IMG/VR virus record: IMGVR_UViG_3300020050_007563
Reading direction: 5' to 3' (one strand)
DNA length: 64,000 nucleotides
Source: an uncultured virus (IMG/VR IMGVR_UViG_3300020050_007563)
Taxonomy: Duplodnaviria > Heunggongvirae > Uroviricota > Caudoviricetes
This document shows positions 2,478 through 60,874 of this stretch, piece by piece (positions within the stretch are counted from its first letter, which is position 1; every line of letters starts with the position of its first letter). Made by a program: the position numbers and the translations under genes. The notes under the pieces were generated by a model, which was not told the origin of the DNA, ran no database searches, and was given only the letters and a program-made list of their open reading frames with translations.

Positions 2478-3110
2478 ATGGAATTGCGTATTGAACAACA
2501 GTCAAGGGGCGTTCGGATCATCACAGGACAAGAAGCCTATCGGCGTCGCTTGCATTTGTCTCGGATTGCCGAGGTGGCTCAAGCATATGGCTTCGAGGAG
2601 ATCATTCTTCCAACAATCGAACCGGCATCGCTTTACGTGGACAAGGCAGGTCCGGAAATTCTTGGCCAGATGTACACATTCCCCGACCGAAAGGGCCGCG
2701 AACTATGTCTGCGACCGGAGGGGACAGCAACCGTTCAGGCGGTAGCTCGTGAACACTGGAAAGGACAGGAGAAGCGCGTTTGGTATTTCGAGCGCTGCTA
2801 TCGATATGAGCGACCACAGGCAGGTCGATACCGCGAGTTCTTCCAGTTCGGAGTGGAGTGGCTGAACCCGTGTACCGATGCGCCGCGTGAAGTGCTGATT
2901 GAAATGGCTGGTCATATGCTCAAAGGAACCGATGCCGTGCTTTCCGAAGGCGTCAAGAGGGGCCTGAGCTACTATACCGGCGACGGCTTCGAGTTCGTTT
3001 GTGATAAGCTCGGTGCGCAGAAACAGGTGTGCGGGGGCGGTCCATATAATGGAGGCATTGGGTTCGCAATCGGGTTCGATAGGATGATGCTCGCATTGAA
3101 TGCCAGCTAA
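2478..3110 (+). CDS. minimal histidyl-tRNA synthetase-like protein (class II catalytic core only)
   Basis: Motif 1 region GFEEIILPTIE, LCLRPEGTA, motif 2 YRYERPQAGRYREFFQFGVE, HisA-like RGLSYYTG, motif 3 GFAIGFDR. 210 aa with no anticodon-binding domain. Confidence 0.88.
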   Translation: MELRIEQQSRGVRIITGQEAYRRRLHLSRIAEVAQAYGFEEIILPTIEPASLYVDKAGPEILGQMYTFPDRKGRELCLRPEGTATVQAVAREHWKGQEKRVWYFERCYRYERPQAGRYREFFQFGVEWLNPCTDAPREVLIEMAGHMLKGTDAVLSEGVKRGLSYYTGDGFEFVCDKLGAQKQVCGGGPYNGGIGFAIGFDRMMLALNAS

Positions 3111-18749: not shown

Positions 18750-20388
18750 CGCTCACATCCGAGATCGCACACCACGGGCCTCCGACATTCGGGATGAGTT
18801 CCTTGGTAACGGCTTTGAAGTAGCGGCAGTTGACCTTCGCAGGGAGTGTCATCGTGCAGGTCGCAGAACCCTGAAAGACCCCTCGTGATGTCCATGAGTT
18901 CGCAGCGCCGGTCAGAGACGTGAAGAGTTCGACCTTGTTGGGCCACGCATTCCCATAGGGCTGGTATAAGATCGTCACGCCCCCTATGGACCGAGTGGTC
19001 TGCATGTCGATCTCGATGTAGTCCCCGACGACGTGTGGGCGACCGGTCTCGCAGAAGGTGCTGGTGCTGCCGTCAATGGCAAGAGAGGCTGGCTTGGCGG
19101 TTGTCTGGACGGTGCCACTGGCCTTCCAGCCAGTGCGGTCGATGTTGCCTCCGGTCGGAGGGGTGGTCGGATCCGTCGGGGTTGTGGGCCCGGAGGAGGG
19201 CACGAGATCCACACACCCGCTCACGAGCTTGTCCCCCTTGGCGTAGTGGGAGAGCTGGAAAGCCGCGTAGTCGCCGGGAGAAGTCCACGATTGGCCCGTC
19301 ACGAGGTTCTTCAGGGCTGTGGAGTATCCGAATCCGATAGCTGCGCCTACGGTCAGGAGCGAGGATTGGTTCTGTCCGCCACCCAAGGTCGGATTCATCA
19401 CCAGCATTGGCTGCTTGTTGCCCGGAGACCCGTTACTGAAGTTGATCGTGCCGATGTTGAGAGCGTACTGGCCCTCCGCGTAGACCGCGACCTGATCGGC
19501 GGAACGAGTGCCTGCCGAAATGAAATCTTCACTCTTCAGCAGCCCCACATTGATCCTTCCGCCCCCAGCGGCATCATAGCCCGGCTTCAGGACCAGAAGG
19601 CCACTCTTGCCGTCTTTGTTGCCGTTGCTGTCCCCGGATAGGGTTCCGATGTTGATCGTAGCGAGGGCCGTTCCGAGGCACCCCATTCCGCCGAACTCGT
19701 TCCAGAAAGCGGTGATCGTCCCGATGGTGAGCGGAACCCCATCGTTGGCGACGAATCCCCATTGGAAGGAATCGCTCCGGACTTGGTTCACATAGGAGCA
19801 TTCCCCCATGCGCTTCATGAAGAGGCCGATGCGCGTCTTGCCGTCGCCGTACTTGGCGGGGCCGGTCAGGTGCATCTGGGTGATCGAGCAGCCCTCGTTG
19901 TAAGCGCTGTTCGTGGTGAGACTGGCGTTGGGTGTCTCGAAGAGTCGGCGTTCGATGTCTGCACTCTTGAGCCATCCCGTATCATCCATCACGATCTCCG
20001 TGGCCACTTGTCCTTGATCCCCGCCTGTCCCGGCGTAGAAGAAGGAAGATCCACCTTGCATACCCGCGCGTGGGACCTGGAGCGTCAGGTTGCTCATGAA
20101 CCTCCCGAACGGAACCTGCACGAACACATAGGAGTTCAGATAGCCGGAGGTCAGGTTGTTCGGAGCCTCTTGGGTCCAACACGCATCCATAAAACACGCC
20201 GAGAACAAGTACCAGTTCTGGAACTGCTCCGAGGTCATGCCCATGGCCTTGCAGCGAGCCCACGCCCACGGAAGGGCGGCTTGTGCATTGGATGGTGTGG
20301 GCCAGCGGTCCTTCACCTTCTTGGCGCCATCCTCGTATGAGAGCGAGTAAGGTGCGTTGGCGAGATTGATCAGGAGGGACTTAGGCAT
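18739..20388 (-). CDS. beta-helix protein with C-terminal discoidin (F5/8 type C) domain
   Basis: P/T linker, then IDRTGWKAS...LAIDGSTSTF...YIEIDM...RYFK...W.AISDV; N-terminal part paralogous to 31036..32580. Confidence 0.75.
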   Translation of the reverse strand: MPKSLLINLANAPYSLSYEDGAKKVKDRWPTPSNAQAALPWAWARCKAMGMTSEQFQNWYLFSACFMDACWTQEAPNNLTSGYLNSYVFVQVPFGRFMSNLTLQVPRAGMQGGSSFFYAGTGGDQGQVATEIVMDDTGWLKSADIERRLFETPNASLTTNSAYNEGCSITQMHLTGPAKYGDGKTRIGLFMKRMGECSYVNQVRSDSFQWGFVANDGVPLTIGTITAFWNEFGGMGCLGTALATINIGTLSGDSNGNKDGKSGLLVLKPGYDAAGGGRINVGLLKSEDFISAGTRSADQVAVYAEGQYALNIGTINFSNGSPGNKQPMLVMNPTLGGGQNQSSLLTVGAAIGFGYSTALKNLVTGQSWTSPGDYAAFQLSHYAKGDKLVSGCVDLVPSSGPTTPTDPTTPPTGGNIDRTGWKASGTVQTTAKPASLAIDGSTSTFCETGRPHVVGDYIEIDMQTTRSIGGVTILYQPYGNAWPNKVELFTSLTGAANSWTSRGVFQGSATCTMTLPAKVNCRYFKAVTKELIPNVGGPWCAISDVSAKG

Positions 20389-20389
20389 A

Positions 20390-20689
20390 TTACTTCTTCT
20401 TTGGTTCGATGTACGTCACCTCGATCACGTGACCCTCTCGGGACTTCCACGGAAGTCGCCGAGCCTCCACGACGCCATTCACTCGCAAGTAGTGCCCGAA
20501 GGCCGCTCCGTGGATGGTGATCGCGTCCAGACTACGCAGGGCGCCCACCCACGCATTGCGCTTGCTCTTGTAGCGGTCCTTCAGGCGGTAGGGCCTGCTT
20601 GCGCCGGGCTTGTCGATCACGACAGAAAAGGGGTCGCTCTGCTTGGTGCGTTTGATCGTCACTCGGACGGGGCTTTTCTTCTTGCTCAT
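20390..20689 (-). CDS. basic hypothetical protein
   Basis: Directly upstream of, and coupled to, the discoidin gene. Confidence 0.6.
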   Translation of the reverse strand: MSKKKSPVRVTIKRTKQSDPFSVVIDKPGASRPYRLKDRYKSKRNAWVGALRSLDAITIHGAAFGHYLRVNGVVEARRLPWKSREGHVIEVTYIEPKKK

Positions 20690-20803
20690 CGGATTGAGGG
20701 AATCGTTCAGTGCTCATTTTGCGCAATGTAGTAAAAGAAAGCCCCGCCGAAGTATGGACTATTCGACGGGTAGTGTCTCAGTTTCCCATCCCCTGACCCT
20801 CAG

Positions 20804-20830
20804 TGCTTAGCGCTAAGGTGCCTACCTTTG
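20804..20830 (+). promoter_or_regulatory. operator palindrome + -7 box for the small basic gene
   Basis: TGCTTAGCGCTAAG 20804-20817; TACCTTTG 20823-20830. Confidence 0.7.
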
Positions 20831-20834
20831 GCAC

Positions 20835-21056
20835 ATGGCGAAGATTACAGGCAAGCAACCGACCGACGCTAACAAGCGTGCGAAGAACATTCTGGACATC
20901 GCGACCACCGAGCAACCGGAGCGCGAGAAGAACGCGGCAGCAGTGGCATTGGGTAGCATGGGTGGCAAGGCACGGGCGAAAAGCCTGAGCCCGGAGAAGC
21001 GCAAGGCCATCGCAAAGAAGGCCGCCAAGAAGCGGTGGGCTAAAAAGAAAGACTAG
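20835..21056 (+). CDS. small basic histone-H1-like/KGG-like protein of IS1-type elements
   Basis: KNAAAVALGSMGGKARAKSLSPEKRKAIAKKAAKKRW. Confidence 0.85.
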   Translation: MAKITGKQPTDANKRAKNILDIATTEQPEREKNAAAVALGSMGGKARAKSLSPEKRKAIAKKAAKKRWAKKKD

Positions 21057-21213
21057 GACGGCCCTCCAAGCCCGAGACAAGATCGATCGAAGATTATTTG
21101 CGTGTGTGGCGAAAAAATCTTTCCTTTGCTTCGCCTAGCTGCTGCGCAAAGGAAGCCAGACCAATGCTGAAATAGTTCTTGGATGTCGGGCGCGACGCCA
21201 TTATGTTCGCGCC

Positions 21214-21672
21214 ATGAATTTCGGCGATCAGGATCTGGACTCTTACCTCTCCGGGCTTCTGGAGACGCTGAGCGATGAAATTGTGCGCAAGACACGTGAG
21301 CGCGATGCTGTGAGTGAGGCGTTGCGCGCATATCGCATTGAGCGGTCGCGCGTTCAGCAGACCGAGCAGGTTCAGTACCCCCGCATCGACTTCAGCAAGT
21401 ACGGCGCATGGCGCGATGCGGCAAAACGATCATTTGAACTTGAGGGCAAGTGCCTATCGCTTGCCCAGATCGTCACCATCGCGAAGAAGATGGGGGCCGA
21501 GGATAAGGACAATGACGTGGTGTCGTCCATCCGCAGTGCGGTCTACGGCATGGCTGATGAGGGGTCGCTGATCTCGTACAAGCCTCCTGGGTATAGCTGG
21601 AAGGTTTACGGCCCTGCGGATTTTTTCGATGCCGATCGCGCGGTGAAGCCCGGAAGAGAGTACCGGTCGTAG
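21214..21672 (+). CDS. coiled-coil + winged-HTH passenger protein
   Basis: N-terminal coiled coil; LSLAQIVTIAKKMG...SIRSAVYGMADEGSL wHTH-like region. Confidence 0.7.
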   Translation: MNFGDQDLDSYLSGLLETLSDEIVRKTRERDAVSEALRAYRIERSRVQQTEQVQYPRIDFSKYGAWRDAAKRSFELEGKCLSLAQIVTIAKKMGAEDKDNDVVSSIRSAVYGMADEGSLISYKPPGYSWKVYGPADFFDADRAVKPGREYRS

Positions 21673-21724
21673 TTCATTGACATCTTGAAAGCATGAAGCC
21701 GCCATTGCGGGCGGCTTCTAATGT

Positions 21725-21800
21725 GGGCCGGGAGGTAAGGCCTCGTGAGCACGGCTTCCTATCCAGCACTCGTGGGTTCAAGTCCCCACCCGGTCCACTA
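21725..21800 (+). ncRNA. tRNA-like RNA 1 (76 nt, non-canonical D and anticodon arms)
   Basis: Acceptor GGGCCGG/CCGGTCC, T-arm GTGGG-TTCAAGTC-CCCAC, 3' ACTA. Confidence 0.6.
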
Positions 21801-21810
21801 GCTTTCAATC

Positions 21811-21954
21811 GTTCGTTGACATAGTGATCTCGTAGCTCAGGGTAGAGCACCGATCGGTATACGTAATGCGCCCCGACTATCGAATGGAGGGAAGCGGTGG
21901 ATACGTTCGGAGGTCGCGGCTTCAATGCCGCCGAGGTCACTATGTCAATCGAAC
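21811..21954 (+). ncRNA. tRNA-like RNA 2 with a 53-nt anticodon-arm insert and extended acceptor helix
   Basis: GATCTCG-TA-GCTC-AGGGTA-GAGC-A-CCGA-[53 nt]-TCGG-AGGTC-GCGGC-TTCAAT-GCCGC-CGAGGTC-ACTA; the flanks extend the helix to 17 bp plus GTTCG/CGAAC. Confidence 0.75.
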
Positions 21955-22049
21955 AACGGCCCAAGTTATAGACAGGGCCTACCTAAAACATCAAAGACGG
22001 CATTAGGGATCCAATCTTGGATCGCCCTTGGTCACACATTTTTACAGCA

Positions 22050-22083
22050 TATGCTTAGCGCTAAGCATAAACCTCTATCTTTG
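22050..22083 (+). promoter_or_regulatory. 20-bp perfect palindrome + -7 box upstream of the transposase
   Basis: TATGCTTAGCGCTAAGCATA 22050-22069; TATCTTTG 22076-22083. Confidence 0.75.
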
Positions 22084-22104
22084 ACCCATCAAGACGCAGA
22101 AGCC

Positions 22105-22941
22105 ATGAACCGCCTCCCCCTCGAAAAGCAAGTCCAGATCATCAACATGCTCGTTGAGGGTAGCAGCCTGCGTAGCACATCCCGCGTGTGCGATGTGTCC
22201 ATCAACACGGTGACAAAGCTTCTGGTGGACGTGGGCCGCGCATGTGAGAAGTTCCACGATGAAACGGTGAAAGGGCTTGAGGTGAAGCGCTTACAGGCCG
22301 ATGAAATCTGGAGCTTCATCTATGCCAAGCAGAAGAACGTTCCCGAAGGCATGGAAGACGCAGCCGGTGACGTGTGGACATGGACGGCTTTGGACAGCGA
22401 TACCAAGCTCATGGTTTCGTGGTACGTAGGTAGCCGCGATGCGCAGGCCGCTTATGAGTTCCTGTCCGATGTGCGCAGCCGCGTTGTTACCCGCATGCAG
22501 CTTACCAGCGACGGACATAGTGCATACGTGCCTGCCGTGGATGCCGTGTTTGGTCAGCACATCGACTACGCTCAGCTTATTAAAATCTACGGCGCTCCAG
22601 TTGGTGCTGGTAACGAACGTCGTTACAGTCCCGCAGAATGCACAGGAACCCGCACCGTAGCTGTTACGGGCCGTCCGAACCATGAGCACGTATCGACATC
22701 GCACGTTGAGCGCCAGAACCTGACCATGCGGATGAGCATGCGCCGGTTCACGCGCCTTACCAATGCCTTCAGCAAGAAGATCGAGAACCACTGCTACGCC
22801 ATCGCCCTCCACTTCGTCCACTACAACTTCTGCCGTATCCACAAGAGCCTGCGCGTTACCCCTGCCATGGAAGCCGGGCTGACCGACAATCTGATGAGCA
22901 TCGCCGACATCGTGAAACTAGCCTACCCCAATTCAAAGTGA
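22105..22941 (+). CDS. IS1-family DDE transposase (single ORF)
   Basis: N-terminal HTH ([19 protein letters not shown]); [26 protein letters not shown]...RFTR. Confidence 0.92.
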
Positions 22942-23075
22942 TGAACTGGTTGCGTTCTGTCTATCGTTTCGTTTGGCCCAACCCTTGGGATCGATACCCT
23001 TCAGGAAAGTCAATGATCCTTGGCGCAGCCATCGTGGCCGCGATCGTAACCCTGCTGGCGTGGTTGGACCGATAA
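22941..23075 (+). CDS. 44-aa membrane peptide inside the IS right end (not in the ORF track)
   Basis: [44 protein letters not shown]; coupled to the transposase stop. Confidence 0.5.
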   Translation: MNWLRSVYRFVWPNPWDRYPSGKSMILGAAIVAAIVTLLAWLDR

Positions 23076-23174
23076 CTCCCAATTCAAACTGAGACACTAC
23101 CATTCGACGAGTCGCCAATATCTGACTATCAGAACTTTGTATATTCGCCGCCGTCTTGGTTCGCCAAGACAGTC

Positions 23175-23220
23175 GAAACCCCTGCGCGGGAGGGATCCAG
23201 TCGCAGGGGTTTCTTCATTT
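23175..23220. terminator. strong hairpin terminator
   Basis: GAAACCCCTGCG/CGCAGGGGTTTC just beyond the end of the minus-strand operon; T-rich tail on +. Confidence 0.65.
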
Positions 23221-23228
23221 GAGAGGTA

Positions 23229-23558
23229 TCACTCCTGCGAAATGGCCTCTAGGATCTGCTCCGCATTGACCGTGACGGTCACGTTGGTCATGTTTTTCAC
23301 GAGACCATGCTGGAGGACCAGCAGATGCTCAATCAGGTCTTGAGCCTCGTCGATGAGAACACCGCCCTTGGCAATAGCCTTGGAGATATGATTGAATGTG
23401 ATGGGCTCCGGGATCTTCAGATTCATCTCATGAGCCATCTCGATGAGGCGGCGGGTCTGGCTCCAGTCCTTGACCGCGATGGGATATCCGGTCTCGGCGC
23501 TCTTCTTGATGAGCAGGGTTGTCTTGCCTGAGCGGCGTGGTCCAGCGATGAGTTCCAT
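23229..23558 (-). CDS. small P-loop NTPase-like protein
   Basis: Walker A GPRRSGKT and Walker B VLIDE in 109 aa. Confidence 0.7.
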   Translation of the reverse strand: MELIAGPRRSGKTTLLIKKSAETGYPIAVKDWSQTRRLIEMAHEMNLKIPEPITFNHISKAIAKGGVLIDEAQDLIEHLLVLQHGLVKNMTNVTVTVNAEQILEAISQE

Positions 23559-23765
23559 TGTTCAGTGTTGGGGCTGTGAAGCTAGTTGTTTCTGCCACTC
23601 ATCATACAGAGGGCTGATCGAGTATCGGTGCCTTGCTACGTAGGCATCTCTTGGAGCAGAAGAATCTCCCCTTGGAGGTCTTGGCTCTTCTGCGGTAGGC
23701 TGCGGCTCCGATGGAGAAGAGGAACTGGCACTCAGGATTGCAGCAACGAAGGGTCCGGGCATCGC

Positions 23766-24254
23766 TCACAGGAAGAAAAGTGTGGAGCCAAGGAGGAAGG
23801 TGAGAGCCTCGAAGGCGTAGGCGATGGTTCCGGCGCGGTGATGACCTTTACGGAACGCAGGCGTGTTCTCGTAGTGATGTGCGAAGTGGGTCTTGACCTT
23901 TTCGCGAAGTCCATTCACGAAGCGGTTGGGGCTTGTTGCCCGCATCCAGAACCAGTCGTACCCATTCGACGGGCTGATATACCTCCAGTCCAAGCCCCTC
24001 TTCTTGTTCAGCCTGTACCGGAACCACATCGTGAACCACCCCCATCCCGCAGGAGCCAGCCACAACACCTTCCAGTCCCGGATCAACAGGATCGTCCCGA
24101 GTAAGCAGACGGCACCAAGAACCGTCCTCTCAATGAGTTCGTCCCGGTGGTTGATGGGTTTGTTCTCTGTGATCCTGTTGGCGTCCGAGGTACTCTCCAT
24201 CTCTTGTATCCAGAAGAGAGAGGCTAAGAAGAGGATGTAGACAACGGCGGTCAT
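23766..24254 (-). CDS. membrane protein
   Basis: Several TM segments; coupled start. Confidence 0.6.
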   Translation of the reverse strand: MTAVVYILFLASLFWIQEMESTSDANRITENKPINHRDELIERTVLGAVCLLGTILLIRDWKVLWLAPAGWGWFTMWFRYRLNKKRGLDWRYISPSNGYDWFWMRATSPNRFVNGLREKVKTHFAHHYENTPAFRKGHHRAGTIAYAFEALTFLLGSTLFFL

Positions 24255-45833: not shown

Positions 45834-48800
45834 ATGCCAAACTTCCTCCATACCGGCAGGGCCAATCCTTGGGCCGCGTGGTTCCGACGCATCTTTCGCG
45901 GAGGGGCTAATACGGATATTAGACCAGAACTGCTCCCTGACGGTCTCTACACGGAAGCACTGAACATGCGCCCCTTGTCGGTGGATGGGAATACGGGCGC
46001 TCTGGAGGCTGTGCAGGGGGAACAAGAACTCTATCCCGCTACGGTATCGAATCCAGGCACCTACGTGCTGATCGGATCGTGTTACACCAATGGCCATGAG
46101 GCCGAGTGGTGGGCCAGTACGGACTTCAATGTCCCGAATGTAGGAGATAATCCTCCGTTCGTTCGTATCGACGGAGATGTGGCGGCAATGAGCCCCAGCA
46201 TCCCTTACGTGTTCGACCGACCTCTCCAGATTGCTGTTGTGGATCGGTGCAGAAGTGGGGTCGTGTACCCGGCGGACCACCTGAGCGACCCTCTCTTCTG
46301 GGACATCGGAGCCATGCTCGACGCTCTCGCCTCGGGCTCTCAGGCTTACTTCTCCGAGTACAGTACGACCATCAATAGTGTCGGCCTGAACGCCCCTCCA
46401 TCGTGGTTGAGGCTCGACCCTATTGAGCCACTTGTGGACTTGATCGGAGCAGTGGGGCTTCCTGTGGGCCAATACACATACGCGCTCCGCTACGTGGATG
46501 TGAACGGGAACAGGACCAACTGGAGCCCTCCCACCCCTCTTATTCCGGTTCCGGCCAAATACACGGCTGATGACACGGCGCCTGGCTCCAACTACCCCGG
46601 GGGCAGAACTTTTGGCGGATCCCCCAACCTGCTGGCCCCAACCCCATACGGGATCAATCTGCGCTTCCGAGTCGATAACGAGCTTGGTTATGCAAGCATC
46701 GAGATCAAGCGCACCTCCTATCGGGATGGACAGGGGCTCTTGGGTCCCGGCACTCAGGAGATCATCTACCGCATTCCGATCCAGCCGAATCTGGTGGATA
46801 CGCTGACGTTCGTGGACCCGGCGAACTCCAATCTGGAGCCGCCCGAGGTGGTGCCAGATGATGAGTCTGTTCTCCAATTCGTGCAAGTGAAGGCCCCCAA
46901 GAGTGTGGACTACTCGGATGGGCGCCTCAAATACTTCAACTTCCGGCTGGAGCCCCGCAAGCTGGAGATGGGATTCATTGAACTCTCCACAGGAAAGAAC
47001 GCCACAAGCATCACGCGCAAGATGACACGCCGAGTGGGCGGCACGGAGATCCCGGATGGCTTCTCTAACCCCTACAACGCTACCTATTACAAGAGCGCCC
47101 AGAGGGGCGAGCAATATGGGTATGGGGTCCAGGCATGGGATGGGGGCTTCGGGAAGTACCCCGTGCAGCCCATCGCGGGGTTACAGAGTTATCAGCATCC
47201 GAGCCAGCGCGACATCAAGGGCGAGAACGGAGCGTGGGCTGGGGCTACGGATCCTGACGGATGGGGCGAAGAGAGCGACACATACTCAGATGACCGCTGC
47301 TGGAACACGACCACTGACGTATCGAACCTGACCCCGGAGGGTCCGGTCGGTCGCACCTTCTCCTCCTTCACACAAGGTCAGGGTACTAAGACCGACACGG
47401 AGAGTGTCGTGAACGTGGCGCTCGCCAACGGAAGCTCCCTCCCAGGAACCGGCGTTGGCCGCATTGGCGAGCAGTTCAACTTGTACGGAGTCACGACGCC
47501 TTCCGGAGTCACGAACGTTCCGGGCGTCCTTGGGGCATTCTACCGACCCAACCAGAATGGATATCTCCCATGGACCCCGCAGGACAATCAAGGGGGCAGT
47601 GGCGGCTACAACATTCCTCCGGTCTCCTCCCGGATGACCACCTCCGCAGGTAGTGGAGGGGATGATCCGTACAACAACGGCAATTTCTACACCAATGGAT
47701 TCGCCGATCAGGTCAATCCCTTCAATCCACAGGACAATCGCGGAAAGGTCTTCGCGCCTACCTATCACTCCCTCGGGCTCCTCTTGGGTGGCATCACGAA
47801 CATCCCGTCTTCAGCAACAGCCATCACCATCACCCGTACTGCGCCAGCAGGCCGCGTTATCGCCCAGGGGTTCGGCAGCTATGTCCTAAGCGCCTCCATA
47901 GACCCTAGCCTTGGCGGAACGACCATCCCGCTAGTACCGGCCAATAAGAGTACGACCGCCTTGGATGTGTACTTCCCGGAGTTCGCAGCCGGGATCACTG
48001 ATCAAGCTACGCTGATCGACATCCAGACCAATCCGCAGAACTACCGCCTTCAAATGCAATGCGGAGTCGGGTTCTACGACGAAACCTATGCCTACTCCGG
48101 AGAGGAGTTCTCCAATAACCTTCTTCCGCGCCCTTGGGTCGGAGACTGCGTAGCCGCTCATCTGATCGACACCATTAAGTATGGTCGTATCACGGAGGAT
48201 CATGGCCAAGTGAATCAGGGCGAGTTCGGCATCGGAGGGATGGGGTATCAACCAACATCAGGAGCCCCTCCGGGCAATTACGTGGGTTTCGACAAGTGGA
48301 GAAGCAACCTCACTATGCAAGGAGGTAGTGCCGCTGGGTATGATTACTCATTCTGGCAGCAGCAGCAGACTGGCAATGCGATGTTCGACATCACCTCCTT
48401 CGTGCCTGTCACGAGCGGTCGATCGAACTTCTACCGCCTCACGAGCAATCAATTCATCTACTCCCCCGAGACCAATGATGTCTTCGAGGGAGGTACTCGA
48501 TACACCTCCTTCTACGATACGGTGGTCCGAAACTTCCACCAGCCGTGGTTCATCGTGAATCTTATCCGGGTGAATGCCGAGGTGCCAGACGCCAACATCG
48601 CTCCGTATGTCAATACTGGAGCGACCTTCGCCACACGAACCACCATTGGGATCTACAATGCCCCACTGACCTCCCCGGAGCAGAACTTCCGACTGGAGGA
48701 TGAGTACGAATACTACAACAGCGTCGGGTATCTCGGCACGGATTACAGATATGCCTACGTGAGGCTCTCAGGCATTGAGCGCCGATACCTCTGCGTGACC

Positions 48801-50642
48801 AATAACACTCTCATCAACGTTGCAGCCATCCTGGCCGACATCACCTCTCAGGGCTATTGGGTGGCTCCGGATGGCGATCGCGTGTACGGCCTTTATGATG
48901 CCATCACTGATGCCGACAATATCGACTACCTCCGCTTCGGCGTGTATGGGACTATTCCTGAGTCCGGAAGTCGCGTTATAATCAAGTACCCAGAGGGGAC
49001 GCCGATCCGAGTATGGGGCCATGATCGGACCATTGCTCCGGTAGTTCATTGCGTGCAGGACGCATCCATTGTTCGCGACGATGTTGTGAATGGGGTTGCT
49101 CCCGATGGTATTCAGTTGGGCGGCCTGCCGCTCCCTTATGCGGGCTTCGGAATGAACCCCCGATACTTCATGCCGGAGAAGGAGTCGCAGACCGAGGAGC
49201 AGATCTTCATCAACTATTGCAGCTCGATCCGGCAGATGTGCATCATGTGGGATGCTGAGACGCTCGTATATCCGGATCTGTACGTGAACCTCAACAGCAC
49301 GGATACGCAACTCAATAGCGCCTCGCAGACCTTCCCGCACGTCCACTACGTGTGTCGTCCAATGAACTTCGACGGCGGCCCACAAGATCAGCCTCCTACC
49401 GGGTTCTTCCCGCAGTATCAGACGGACTATCCACTGGAGTGGAACATCTTCACATACGGCGGTACTCGATTCCAACCGGGCCTGAATCTGGACTACTGCA
49501 AGCAACAGCCCGTGGAGTTTTTCGGGTACCCGCAGGCGGGATTCGTGGACAATACGGACTACTGCACCGGCTACATTGCCAGCGAGGAGTTTGACCCACT
49601 TCTGCAAGACAGTCCGGGACTCAGAACCTTCCTTTCCCAGAACCTCCGAGTGCTATCCGAGGAGACCGGAGAGATCAAAGTCGGAGCCACCTATCTAGGG
49701 CCTGCTGGCCAGAACACCGTGGTGTGGACCCAGAAGGGTGTTTGTCGGATCTTGACGAACAAGAACGTCTTGACCGGGGCTTCGGGGGAGCAGGTATCCA
49801 CCCAAAGCATCTCGAACTACTGGGGTGAGGTCATGTTCCTGTCACGGGACATCGGATGTCCGGACCAGTTCTGGCGCCTCTGGGTCAAGGCGTATGCAAC
49901 CGCTGGCGACTCTTACGTGGACACCTTCTACTGGCCCAACCGGAAGGGCTGGTATCGTATGCGCGGCGATCAGATCGACGACATCAGCCGCAACAAGGTG
50001 CTGAAGAGGGTCCGCCCGATCCTGGAGGACCTCCCTGCTGGATATGCGCCACAGATGAGCGCCTTCTTCAACGTGAAGTATCAGGAGATGTGGGCCAGCA
50101 TCAGCCCCTATACATCTGGAGGCGTCAGTCACGATCCTGTCCTGCTCGTCTACTCACCTCAAAGCAATGAGTGGCTTGGAGAGTACAGTTATCGGTTCGA
50201 TGGGTACGTCAATACCCCCGATGCTGTCCTGGGGATGCGAGATGCGTCTTCATGGGAACTTGATACAGGTTACACGATCAGCGGCAGTATGCGAGAGGCG
50301 TGGGTCTACCTCCCGATCATCGGGGACCTCGGAAAGTGGAAGGAAATGGTGCGCTTCCGTATCGTGGGGGATAAGCCCGACGGGATGCAGCTCTTCAACA
50401 AGGATGGTGTGATGATCTCCGATCAGTCCGAGGCCATTCAAGAGGCGTTCGACCCTGGAACCGGATTCCTTTGGGTGAAGCTCTACGATAGCTACGAAGG
50501 GTGGTGGTGGGCTGTGATGGAATCGTATGATCCACTGCGTCCATTACCGCAGGATGTGCGTTTCTTTGTGAAGGTGCTCTACAATACCACTGGCGACAAG
50601 ATGCTTGTGGCGCTCGAAAACGAATTGAAAAACATACGCTGA
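45834..50642 (+). CDS. large tail nozzle/stabilization protein (crAss muzzle / P22 gp10-like)
   Basis: F.GG.NTD...L...Y..ALNMR N-terminus; YTYALRY...GN.T.WS; RGEQYGYGV; 1602 aa. Confidence 0.75.
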   Translation: MPNFLHTGRANPWAAWFRRIFRGGANTDIRPELLPDGLYTEALNMRPLSVDGNTGALEAVQGEQELYPATVSNPGTYVLIGSCYTNGHEAEWWASTDFNVPNVGDNPPFVRIDGDVAAMSPSIPYVFDRPLQIAVVDRCRSGVVYPADHLSDPLFWDIGAMLDALASGSQAYFSEYSTTINSVGLNAPPSWLRLDPIEPLVDLIGAVGLPVGQYTYALRYVDVNGNRTNWSPPTPLIPVPAKYTADDTAPGSNYPGGRTFGGSPNLLAPTPYGINLRFRVDNELGYASIEIKRTSYRDGQGLLGPGTQEIIYRIPIQPNLVDTLTFVDPANSNLEPPEVVPDDESVLQFVQVKAPKSVDYSDGRLKYFNFRLEPRKLEMGFIELSTGKNATSITRKMTRRVGGTEIPDGFSNPYNATYYKSAQRGEQYGYGVQAWDGGFGKYPVQPIAGLQSYQHPSQRDIKGENGAWAGATDPDGWGEESDTYSDDRCWNTTTDVSNLTPEGPVGRTFSSFTQGQGTKTDTESVVNVALANGSSLPGTGVGRIGEQFNLYGVTTPSGVTNVPGVLGAFYRPNQNGYLPWTPQDNQGGSGGYNIPPVSSRMTTSAGSGGDDPYNNGNFYTNGFADQVNPFNPQDNRGKVFAPTYHSLGLLLGGITNIPSSATAITITRTAPAGRVIAQGFGSYVLSASIDPSLGGTTIPLVPANKSTTALDVYFPEFAAGITDQATLIDIQTNPQNYRLQMQCGVGFYDETYAYSGEEFSNNLLPRPWVGDCVAAHLIDTIKYGRITEDHGQVNQGEFGIGGMGYQPTSGAPPGNYVGFDKWRSNLTMQGGSAAGYDYSFWQQQQTGNAMFDITSFVPVTSGRSNFYRLTSNQFIYSPETNDVFEGGTRYTSFYDTVVRNFHQPWFIVNLIRVNAEVPDANIAPYVNTGATFATRTTIGIYNAPLTSPEQNFRLEDEYEYYNSVGYLGTDYRYAYVRLSGIERRYLCVTNNTLINVAAILADITSQGYWVAPDGDRVYGLYDAITDADNIDYLRFGVYGTIPESGSRVIIKYPEGTPIRVWGHDRTIAPVVHCVQDASIVRDDVVNGVAPDGIQLGGLPLPYAGFGMNPRYFMPEKESQTEEQIFINYCSSIRQMCIMWDAETLVYPDLYVNLNSTDTQLNSASQTFPHVHYVCRPMNFDGGPQDQPPTGFFPQYQTDYPLEWNIFTYGGTRFQPGLNLDYCKQQPVEFFGYPQAGFVDNTDYCTGYIASEEFDPLLQDSPGLRTFLSQNLRVLSEETGEIKVGATYLGPAGQNTVVWTQKGVCRILTNKNVLTGASGEQVSTQSISNYWGEVMFLSRDIGCPDQFWRLWVKAYATAGDSYVDTFYWPNRKGWYRMRGDQIDDISRNKVLKRVRPILEDLPAGYAPQMSAFFNVKYQEMWASISPYTSGGVSHDPVLLVYSPQSNEWLGEYSYRFDGYVNTPDAVLGMRDASSWELDTGYTISGSMREAWVYLPIIGDLGKWKEMVRFRIVGDKPDGMQLFNKDGVMISDQSEAIQEAFDPGTGFLWVKLYDSYEGWWWAVMESYDPLRPLPQDVRFFVKVLYNTTGDKMLVALENELKNIR

Positions 50643-60520: not shown

Positions 60521-60874
60521 AGCGTTCTTTCCGAGGGTACCATATCGTAGGCGTCACCGGTTTTCACCTCGCCACCTCACCAAAAGGCGGGAAATACGAC
60601 GCTTACACGTCCCTGTCAAAGCAAGGGTCAAAACGGGCACTGAGCCACTACCGCCATCTCTCAACCCGGAACTGAAGTTCGCAGCAATGCAACCCTTGCG
60701 ACGAAGGTCCACACAAGAAGCCGGACGGCACCAAGCCAATGCTACATGCAGAGGGGTGAGGAAGCCGGTGGAGGAAGGTGCGACAGGGTCTGAAGAGCGC
60801 ACGCTTGGAACGCCGGAGGGGAACTTCAGGAAGTAAAGATGGCGGTGTGTCAAAGAAGCAAAAACTACTCCAAC

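Follow-up and report, generated by a model that had tools for sequence, protein, structure and literature searches.

The subject of this study is a mobile element within a 64,000-nucleotide stretch of DNA from an uncultured tailed phage (IMG/VR record IMGVR_UViG_3300020050_007563), referred to here in its whole length as the window. Positions 20769-23101 hold an intact transporter insertion sequence (IS) of the IS1 family, 2333 bp long, which entered an intergenic spot of the phage by DDE transposition with duplication of 8 bp of target. Its 16-bp inverted ends, recognized both in the sequence and in a repeat scan, match at 16 out of 16 positions: the left one, GGTAGTGTCTCAGTTT, is at 20769-20784 on the plus strand, and its exact reverse complement is at 23086-23101 on the minus strand. 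Immediately outside the ends are the two copies of the duplicated 8-mer, ATTCGACG, at 20761-20768 and 23102-23109; the right copy is identified by sequence and repeat scan, and both are matched by a single copy in an empty-site contig described below. Inside the ends there are, from left to right, a gene for a 73-aa basic protein, a gene for a 152-aa cargo protein, a GC-rich hairpin, two tRNA-shaped RNAs, a transposase gene and a short insert. The neighboring open reading frames (ORFs), of 99 aa (20390-20689) and 109 aa (23229-23558), are both on the minus strand, and the insertion between them is intergenic. An earlier reading of the sequence alone, hereafter the original prediction, had reported perfect ends, an 8-bp duplication and an intergenic site, and all three are confirmed here. 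The exact end 16-mer occurs in 2 copies in the whole window, and shuffled windows lead to an expectation of 0.29 matches at up to 3 mismatches. A further end-like 16-mer with 3 mismatches, at 60637-60652 (minus strand), is either a chance match or what remains of a solo copy (as many matches arose in 1 of 100 shuffles); it has no partner nearby, and was rejected as a third element end.

Contigs of four public metagenome runs (X1-X4) were aligned to window positions 20300-23600. A 372-nt contig of run X3 carries positions 20504-20760 joined without a break to 23102-23216, with 2341 nt skipped, and at the junction eight letters fit either side, corresponding to one ATTCGACG. It follows from this join and from its single 8-mer that the empty site exists. 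Compared with the window, the flanks of this contig show 2 differences over 257 positions on one side and 0 over 115 on the other, and near-identical phage DNA without the element still circulates. Because the empty-site contig exists, the insertion is recent, as the original prediction had suggested; it had also proposed a search for phage relatives with an empty site. The filled form is also represented outside the window: run X1 contains exact 150-nt pieces of the element (21162-21311 and 21637-21786) together with a 222-nt piece of the left flank, and a related element in the same run gives a match that ends exactly at 23101. Run X1 is labelled RNA-Seq, although by the tool's own remark it is probably DNA, and no RNA dataset is listed as carrying the stretch. 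In runs X2 and X4 contigs of related phages have about 1200 other letters between 20752 and 23102, so this intergenic spot varies within the group of phages.

An assembly chimera, or an old fixed part of the phage in place of a recent insertion, is in our judgment an extremely improbable explanation of these data. In its favor it can be said that only one assembled copy is available. Nonetheless, the ends and the duplication are perfect, the empty-site contig with one copy of the 8-mer contradicts this explanation, exact pieces of the filled form are present in another run, and 59 relatives, introduced below, have the same ends and 8-bp duplications in unrelated contexts.

The original prediction had also pointed to GACT and AGTC on the two sides of the target 8-mer. 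The letters are indeed there, but their significance did not survive comparison with relatives: fully complementary flanks (4 of 4) are found in 0 of 58 related complete elements, with a distribution equal to chance, and we rejected GACT/AGTC as a target feature. The duplications of the 58 complete relatives have a weak symmetric bias: position 1 is C or G in 42 of them, position 2 is A or G in 47, and position 7 is T in 33; the window copy, ATTCGACG, fits this bias poorly. Other searches around the site returned little. The nearest virus record (G001) has no match to window positions 19800-24100, the DNA of the element has no match in 50,697 phage records, and by protein the same records yield one match, at 31%. 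The two flanking phage genes have no relatives in viral contigs, and hence no empty site could be recovered by that route.

The transposase is a single ORF of 278 aa (837 bp with the stop codon) at 22105-22941 on the plus strand, found in the ORF list and with Pfam and NCBIfam. It scores 28.3 bits (E = 2.5e-6) against the Pfam family DDE_Tnp_IS1 (PF03400), whose cutoff is 24.1, and has an N-terminal helix-turn-helix (HTH). The NCBIfam IS1 model (NF033558) covers only residues 7-145 with 72.2 bits, short of its cutoff of 100, and therefore the protein is placed in a distant branch of IS1. Residues D66, D136 and E202 are conserved in 97% or more of the 103 relatives aligned, which public records call "IS1 family transposase" or "DDE-type integrase/transposase/recombinase". 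Members of the IS1 family duplicate 8-9 bp of target. The PF03400 score above cutoff, the ends and the 8-bp duplication thus bear out the earlier assignment to IS1, and the reading frame from the ATG at 22105 bears out the statement that the transposase takes up 837 of the 2333 bp.

Classical IS1 elements (IS1A type) have two ORFs connected by a −1 frameshift, are shorter than about 1.2 kb and carry no passengers. With IS1 of Escherichia coli the element shares the IS1 catalytic domain with an N-terminal HTH, ends that begin GG...TG, and the 8-bp duplication. The differences are in the architecture: where IS1 has InsA and InsB' with a frameshift in less than 1 kb, the element has one fused ORF in 2333 bp, and to this are added a cargo slot, palindromes in a pair and the conserved gene for the 73-aa protein. 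The single 278-aa ORF, the three further ORFs and the two RNA-like genes inside the ends all set it apart from the classical type. It is instead like the transporter IS (tIS), described as IS derivatives with passenger genes (PMC7986276, PMC9330008): passengers lie inside one pair of inverted ends and are moved by a single transposase. Two observations place the element in that class, as the original prediction had proposed from the presence of non-transposition genes inside one pair of ends. The empty-site contig lacks all 2333 bp at once, and the cargo varies among close relatives.

With the transposase as query, tblastn confirmed 509 relatives in contigs of genomes, and 80 of them were retained; with 29 viral loci these make the 109 related loci (L001, L002 and so forth below) on which the comparisons are based. 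The end repeat, with no more than 3 mismatches in 16, flanks the transposase on both sides in 80 of the 109 loci, and an exact 8-bp duplication is present in 59. Complete relatives range from 1856 to 6552 bp (median 3298), and their hosts belong to Bacteroidota, Pseudomonadota, Acidobacteriota, Nitrospirota, Verrucomicrobiota and others. In the protein database at least 8000 clusters match at E ≤ 1e-30 when the most word-similar ones are scored; among the matches listed, the closest named clusters come from Flavobacteriales assemblies, at 81-86% identity, and other contigs reach 97%. A quick tree of the transposases, from which 7 of the 109 loci were dropped as short or interrupted, places the window in a Bacteroidota group of 30-34 rows. 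These comparisons place the element in a large cross-phylum lineage of the IS1 family with almost invariant ends, 8-bp duplications and a single DDE ORF, whose layout is, in order, left end, small basic gene, variable cargo, palindromic promoter-like site, single-ORF transposase and right end. We found no printed account of the lineage, its core gene or the tRNA-shaped genes in the literature searched, a search outside of which lie ISfinder and the 2009 paper of Siguier et al., which is said to deal with IS1595 and IS1. Nothing was found in the literature under the name ISMhu11.

The 73-aa basic protein (20835-21056, plus strand), which the original prediction counted as cargo, is instead a core gene of the lineage. 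By tblastn it has relatives in 81 of the 109 loci, in 76 of these upstream of the transposase on the same strand, and it lies inside the ends of 53 of the 59 complete elements, with a start usually 55-106 nt from the left end. It belongs to no Pfam or NCBIfam family; 462 database relatives are named hypothetical, with a few called 'histone H1' or 'RNA-binding protein'. Core parts of the lineage, too, are two palindromes recognized by the repeat scan. The first, TGCTTAGCGCTAAG at 20804-20817, precedes the 73-aa gene and is followed by TACCTTTG (20823-20830); the second, TGCTTAGCGCTAAGCA at 22052-22067, is 38 nt upstream of the transposase start and is followed by TATCTTTG (22076-22083). The two copies in the window, TGCTTAGCGCTAAG(CA), are a local version of a family motif, TGCTTGA, which with at most 1 mismatch precedes the transposase ATG by no more than 90 nt in 49 of the 58 complete relatives, as against 137 of 1160 random 90-nt windows; in 26 of these relatives the motif is found no farther than 110 nt from the left end. 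The sequence TAnnTTTG, which we take to be the −7 promoter motif of Bacteroidota, comes after each palindrome of the window (20823-20830 and 22076-22083). We infer that these palindrome/TAnnTTTG sites are putative promoters or operators; a scan for sigma-70 promoters in 20400-23500 returned 0 sites. Together, the 73-aa protein and the palindromes would be the control parts that the lineage carries for its own use. By eye, many relatives (for example L004, L008, L009 and L045) also show AAACTGAAC or AAACTGACC 10-20 nt upstream of the palindrome that precedes the transposase. These sequences, which the window element lacks, resemble the inner part of the right end repeat, and may represent a candidate internal binding site for the transposase.

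The region between the core gene and the transposase is occupied by different genes in different elements. The 59 complete elements contain 198 cargo ORFs of at least 50 aa; with L108 omitted as a duplicate of L107, the 133 of at least 95 aa were scanned, of which 49 have a Pfam family at E ≤ 1e-4. The families include HTH_3 and/or Peptidase_M78 (proteins of about 380-430 aa, in BLAST clusters of n = 12 and n = 6), P63C partners, SocA_Panacea in three elements, GmrSD in two, HEPN RiboL-PSP, RhuM, Abi_2, MazF, HigB, a Schlafen/AlbA_2 protein, DNA methylases, ClpP-type proteases and a colicin-type "Cytotoxic" domain; three nested transposases are also present. The cargo that can be assigned to a Pfam family consists mostly of toxin-antitoxin or defence genes. 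The commonest cargo is an opposite-strand pair of a protein of about 400 aa, of HTH/Peptidase_M78 type, with a P63C partner of about 200 aa (L004, L005, L008, L024, L029, L089 and others), and looks like a recurrent defence or toxin-antitoxin pair. The closest relative, L001, has 85% identity in the transposase and other ORFs in the slot, from which it follows that cargo is exchanged between close relatives.

A smaller addition can be recognized near the right end of the window element. A 15-nt direct repeat (22927-22941 and 23078-23092, plus strand), detected by the repeat scan, encloses a 136-nt insert; the repeat is a copy of the 3' end of the transposase gene and lies just inside the right end. 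In L001, which is without the insert, the stop codon is inside the end repeat. The bracketed insert may therefore illustrate a route by which cargo is gained downstream of the transposase. Within it the ORF list contains a 45-aa hydrophobic ORF (22938-23075, plus strand), which the original prediction presented as a membrane peptide. This ORF exists, but it has no relative in the 109 related loci, and because of this we do not count it as a gene.

The 152-aa protein (21214-21672, plus strand) occupies the cargo slot proper. It has no family in Pfam, NCBIfam or PHROGs, a word-indexed search returned only the protein itself, and among the 109 loci no relative was found by tblastn or phmmer. HMMER over 1.84 billion representatives gave three small relatives (P0002 at E = 9e-13, P0004 and P0005), with E values to 3e-4; a fourth match, to a repeat protein, was judged unrelated. 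Scans of viral and metagenome data for this family gave nothing, or two partial weak matches (L110, L111), and leads in the ESM Atlas are clusters at a score of 0.94 and one with HARE-HTH in 14% of its members. The protein comes from a rare family. A profile of the four sequences finds weak matches to ORFs in the same place in L015, L019 and L038 (E = 7e-4 to 5e-3 among 199 ORFs), and hhalign aligns the family with these proteins at a probability of 66%.

The structure of the protein was modelled with AlphaFold2 (AF2). With an alignment of 7 sequences the model has a predicted local confidence (pLDDT) of 76.9, compared with 51 for the single-sequence model, and consists of a long N-terminal helix (residues 5-50) and a C-terminal domain. 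In residues 60-140 the pLDDT is 83-91, and the succession of elements is H65-77, H83-92, H99-115, E119-122 and E131-134. The matches listed by Foldseek in the PDB are mostly winged helices: the globular domain of histone H1, the Fur family, ScpA and KAT6A, with E values from 2e-3 to 0.1 (best 1.8e-3, none at or below 1e-3) and target-normalised TM-scores of about 0.6-0.8 to small, single-domain targets. The predicted H-(b)-H-H-b-b topology and the matches to solved winged helices, all of them weak, agree with a winged helix-turn-helix (wHTH) domain. On account of the AF2 model and the Foldseek matches, the description "coiled coil plus wHTH", given in the original prediction, is a fair one. 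Winged helices are mostly DNA binders.

Downstream of the 152-aa gene a 9-bp GC-rich hairpin can be read from the sequence at 21695-21718 (plus strand); by eye, comparable hairpins stand between ORF and RNA in L019, L025 and L038. It is followed by two tRNA-shaped RNAs on the plus strand. RNA1 (21725-21798), recognized by folding, has a 7-bp acceptor stem (GGGCCGG...CCGGTCC A) with G1-C72, G2-C71, G3:U70 and A73, no D stem, a weak middle hairpin, and a 5-bp T stem with an 8-nt T loop. Alanine identity, in tRNA-Ala and in transfer-messenger RNA (tmRNA), is conferred by G3:U70 and A73; RNA1 has both on a 7-bp stem and is in this respect of the alanine type, with putative charging. RNA2 (21811-21954) is a 22-bp hairpin enclosing a tRNA core (21826-21940), with an acceptor, a canonical D arm (GTAGCTCAGGGTAGAGC), a T arm with a 6-nt loop and an anticodon arm expanded to about 60 nt; its fold has a z-score of −6.2, and 0 of 200 shuffles were as good. 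We also built a covariance model of our own, R1, from five tRNA-shaped genes of the relatives, in which 14 of 21 pairs show compensatory change. R1 scores 17.5 bits on RNA1 and 39.7 bits (E = 4e-9) on RNA2. The label 'tRNA-like' is used here on the basis of folding by hand, the fold z-score of RNA2 and the R1 scores.

The RNAs of the window have counterparts in the relatives, where ARAGORN recognizes tRNA-shaped genes in several loci. By R1 and a stem-and-loop scan, tRNA-shaped genes on the strand of the transposase, ending 96-290 nt upstream of its ATG, are present in 16 of the 109 loci (L002, L006, L015, L019, L023, L025, L031, L037, L038, L040, L048, L050, L051, L075, L081 and L082), of which L050 and L051 are identical copies. 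Two kinds can be distinguished. Genes of the first kind fold as a cloverleaf whose anticodon loops are unusual, such as GCU in combination with a short variable arm. The second, 67-71 nt long, has G1-C72, G2-C71, G3:U70 and A73, a single strand containing GGTA where the D arm would be, a single short hairpin, and a canonical TTCGANT T loop; it is found in L015 (twice), L019, L023, L025, L038, L081 and L082, and on the other strand in L069. In these nine RNAs the three first acceptor pairs are invariant, and in acceptor pairs 4-7 and T pairs 1-3 both partners vary. CCA is encoded in 3 of the nine. In 6 of 7 loci scanned, which hold eight of these RNAs, one RNA matches both ends of the Rfam tmRNA model in an alignment that skips the middle, with 18-37 bits (E = 4e-11 to 2e-3) where the gathering score is 47. 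RNA1 looks like a divergent member of the second kind, judging by its acceptor marks. In L082 an RNA of the second kind is followed by a cloverleaf, in the same order as in the window.

The resemblance to tmRNA is confined to its tRNA-like domain. With that domain, or with the acceptor of tRNA-Ala, the RNAs of the family share G1-C72, G2-C71, G3:U70, A73, the T arm and the lack of a true D stem. They differ from tmRNA in being 67-74 nt long, with the mRNA-like and pseudoknot part replaced by one short hairpin, and in that the scores of the relatives against the tmRNA model (RF00023) are all below the gathering score, RNA1 having no match at all. To our knowledge, no described IS has tRNA-shaped genes at a fixed place beside the transposase promoter, and no paper on IS-borne tRNA-like or tmRNA-like genes was found in the literature searched. 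Some other arrangements occur in viral contigs. Just upstream of the transposase, L082 (3627-3878) and L081 (3726-3890) have arrays of two or three tRNA-shaped genes, in which a long-arm Tyr-like gene (anticodon AUA or GUA) precedes a tmRNA-end-like RNA, with a cloverleaf added in L082. The 1.86-kb element of L107 and L108 has a truncated transposase match, a 'Cytotoxic' ORF and, on the opposite strand, a 110-nt Leu-like tRNA-shaped gene with an insertion.

A different explanation would see in both window RNAs tRNA genes in decay, or pieces of tRNAs, that reached the slot as hitch-hikers and now serve no function. Several results agree with it and weigh against our interpretation of these sequences as tRNA-like genes. 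ARAGORN reports 0 tRNA genes in the window, and again 0 when it is run with the intron option on just the element. There is no Rfam match at E ≤ 1 in 20400-23500, and in 21680-21970 only noise at E = 0.11-4.5; RF00005 has no match at E ≤ 10 in 21680-21970, and the tmRNA model RF00023 has none in the window. With its filters off and on a short stretch, R1 did not return the full-length match to RNA2, but one of 9.2 bits at 21827-21916. The T loops are aberrant, that of RNA1, with 8 nt, being unlike those of the nine relatives (and RNA1 is not matched by the tmRNA model), and RNA2 combines its 6-nt T loop with a large expansion of about 60 nt. Moreover, the scan that yielded the nine RNAs of the second kind accepted only perfectly paired acceptor and T stems, and G3:U70 served to group them; due to this selection only the covariation and the invariance of G1-C72, G2-C71 and A73 are informative. 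Against decay, G1-C72, G2-C71 and A73 are kept in nine divergent relatives in which other pairs covary, the acceptor and T stems of the window RNAs are fully paired, and 16 of 109 loci, from several phyla, have the RNA at one fixed place and on one fixed strand. Decay seems to us unlikely. In sum, of the two tRNA-like RNAs of the original prediction, the folds and the R1 scores speak for the assignment, and the silence of ARAGORN and Rfam speaks against it.

Whether the winged-helix protein and the RNAs belong together was examined in the relatives. In the window, L015, L019 and L038 the same order is found: an ORF of winged-helix type, then a hairpin, then a tmRNA-end-like RNA. The raw counts over the 58 complete elements, which ignore relatedness, are in line with a dependence on the strand of the cargo. 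Of the 28 elements whose nearest upstream cargo ORF runs opposite to the transposase, 0 have an RNA; of the 24 in which this ORF shares the strand of the transposase, 8 have one; and of the 6 with no cargo ORF upstream, 2 have one.

These observations have their limits, beyond that of the raw counts. The similarity between the 152-aa family and the proteins of L015, L019 and L038 is weak. In the quick transposase tree these three loci are in one clade with L023 and L070, and the window is elsewhere in the Bacteroidota group, so that the pairing is supported by two lineages and not by four, and inheritance alone could explain it. A tmRNA-end-like RNA without the winged-helix ORF is found in L081, L082 and L069. 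Finally, the presence of an RNA in that place in only 16 of the 109 loci means that it is dispensable for transposition. The original prediction had tied the RNAs to the wHTH protein in one cassette; this does not hold, as L081 and L082 have tandem tRNA-shaped genes at the same fixed place without the protein. Co-occurrence in other copies, the absence of which it had named as a refutation, is seen in L015, L019 and L038, but these are one clade and the RNA also occurs without the protein. We consider it about an even chance that the winged-helix protein and RNA1 form an inherited accessory unit of a Bacteroidota branch.

How such a unit might work can be outlined as follows. In the window element the cargo slot carries the winged-helix gene, the hairpin and the two tRNA-shaped genes, all on the plus strand and a short way ahead of the region with the transposase promoter. 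From this position, with cargo of the same orientation on one side and the transposase on the other, the RNAs, if processed like tRNAs, would cut or end the transcripts that read through from the cargo. In this way they would keep transposase expression under the promoter of the element itself and uncoupled from read-through, a proposal that we put forward tentatively and rate below an even chance. Slightly less likely again, though still a possibility to be considered, is that RNA1 and its 68-nt relatives mimic the end of tmRNA or tRNA-Ala, so as to receive tRNA-like processing and possibly charging by alanyl-tRNA synthetase (AlaRS). The winged-helix protein could be a dimeric nucleic-acid binder that belongs with the tmRNA-end-like RNA. 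A further step, in which one branch of the lineage pairs a dimeric winged-helix protein with a minimal, alanine-chargeable mimic of the tmRNA end that enters the tRNA or ribosome-rescue machinery (AlaRS, EF-Tu, SmpB, RNase P), is doubtful. If true, it would mean mobile tampering, borne by phage and IS, with trans-translation or tRNA-directed defences, or a transposase output coupled to that machinery.

The same genes could also be seen as a module for toxin-antitoxin function, abortive infection or counter-defence, in which protein and RNA act as a pair on tRNA, tmRNA or the ribosome and benefit the carrier over the transposon. The prevalence of toxin-antitoxin and defence genes in the slot of the relatives is consistent with this, and so are the alanine identity marks on the acceptor and the CCA encoded in three relatives. 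There is also a parallel in the AcrIIIA1 protein of a staphylococcal phage, which forms a protein-RNA anti-CRISPR complex with tRNA- and tmRNA-derived RNA fragments (PMC11662646). Both cases have a small phage-borne protein with RNA of tRNA or tmRNA type, in the present one as a putative pair. AcrIIIA1 uses fragments of host RNA (PMC11662646) and is unrelated in sequence, whereas the RNA of the element is encoded beside the gene.

Comparison with type III toxin-antitoxin systems is less favorable to such a module. In these systems, exemplified by ToxIN, an endoribonuclease toxin is paired with a tandem-repeat RNA antitoxin. The element has in common with ToxIN a protein gene beside a structured RNA gene on mobile DNA, but its RNA is downstream of the gene and not upstream, and there is no match to an endoribonuclease family. 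No tandem repeat of the type III style was found in 20400-23500, and the 152-aa protein matches no family, so that the pair falls outside type III. More generally, the protein has no nuclease, toxin or known antitoxin domain, winged helices mostly bind DNA, and the RNAs occur without the protein too. We therefore regard a module of this sort as rather improbable. Far less probable still is that a tRNA-shaped gene serves as a private decoder for rare codons (AUA, read by UAU) kept in the transposase gene. There are 0 ATA codons in the transposase, 73-aa and 152-aa genes of the window, which speaks against a decoder of AUA codons in this element, though other branches could still fit; also, no UAU anticodon loop is present in the window RNAs, the loops here and in the relatives being of the UUCC type or GCU. 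Taking the evidence together, we believe that the explanation proposed here, of a recently inserted transporter IS of a widespread lineage with its cargo of winged-helix gene and tRNA-shaped genes, is as a whole probably correct.

The phage that received the element is represented in the window by genes for a portal protein, an endolysin, NinG/Rap and a junction resolvase, as well as by a P22-like portal domain. No integrase was found among the 39 window ORFs scanned. A 1602-aa protein (45834-50642, plus strand) gives a weak match to the Crassvirus muzzle protein (E = 1e-7); this match and the Flavobacteriales-like transposase are hints of a crAss-like phage of Bacteroidota. Separately, a 210-aa phage ORF at 2478-3110 (plus strand) matches the N-terminal part of histidyl-tRNA synthetase (Pfam tRNA-synt_His, E = 1.5e-21), and hence the phage that has the tRNA-shaped cargo also has a truncated synthetase-like gene. 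The closest transposases being in Flavobacteriales assemblies, and the two TAnnTTTG motifs fitting a promoter type of Bacteroidota, the evidence points to a host in this phylum.

These results can be interpreted on several levels. For the phage, the window is a natural record of transposition into its genome, with filled and empty alleles both in public data, and the similarity of the transposase to those of Flavobacteriales assemblies provides a host lead for an uncultured virus. For the IS1 family, they bring to light a large unnamed lineage, behind thousands of database clusters labelled only "IS1 family transposase". Since its swap slot is full of toxin-antitoxin and defence genes, this lineage, with its fixed core gene, is likely to be a shuttle for such genes across phyla. 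The tRNA-shaped genes, some of which bear the alanine marks of tmRNA, in turn offer a testable link of transposons to the tRNA and ribosome-rescue machinery.

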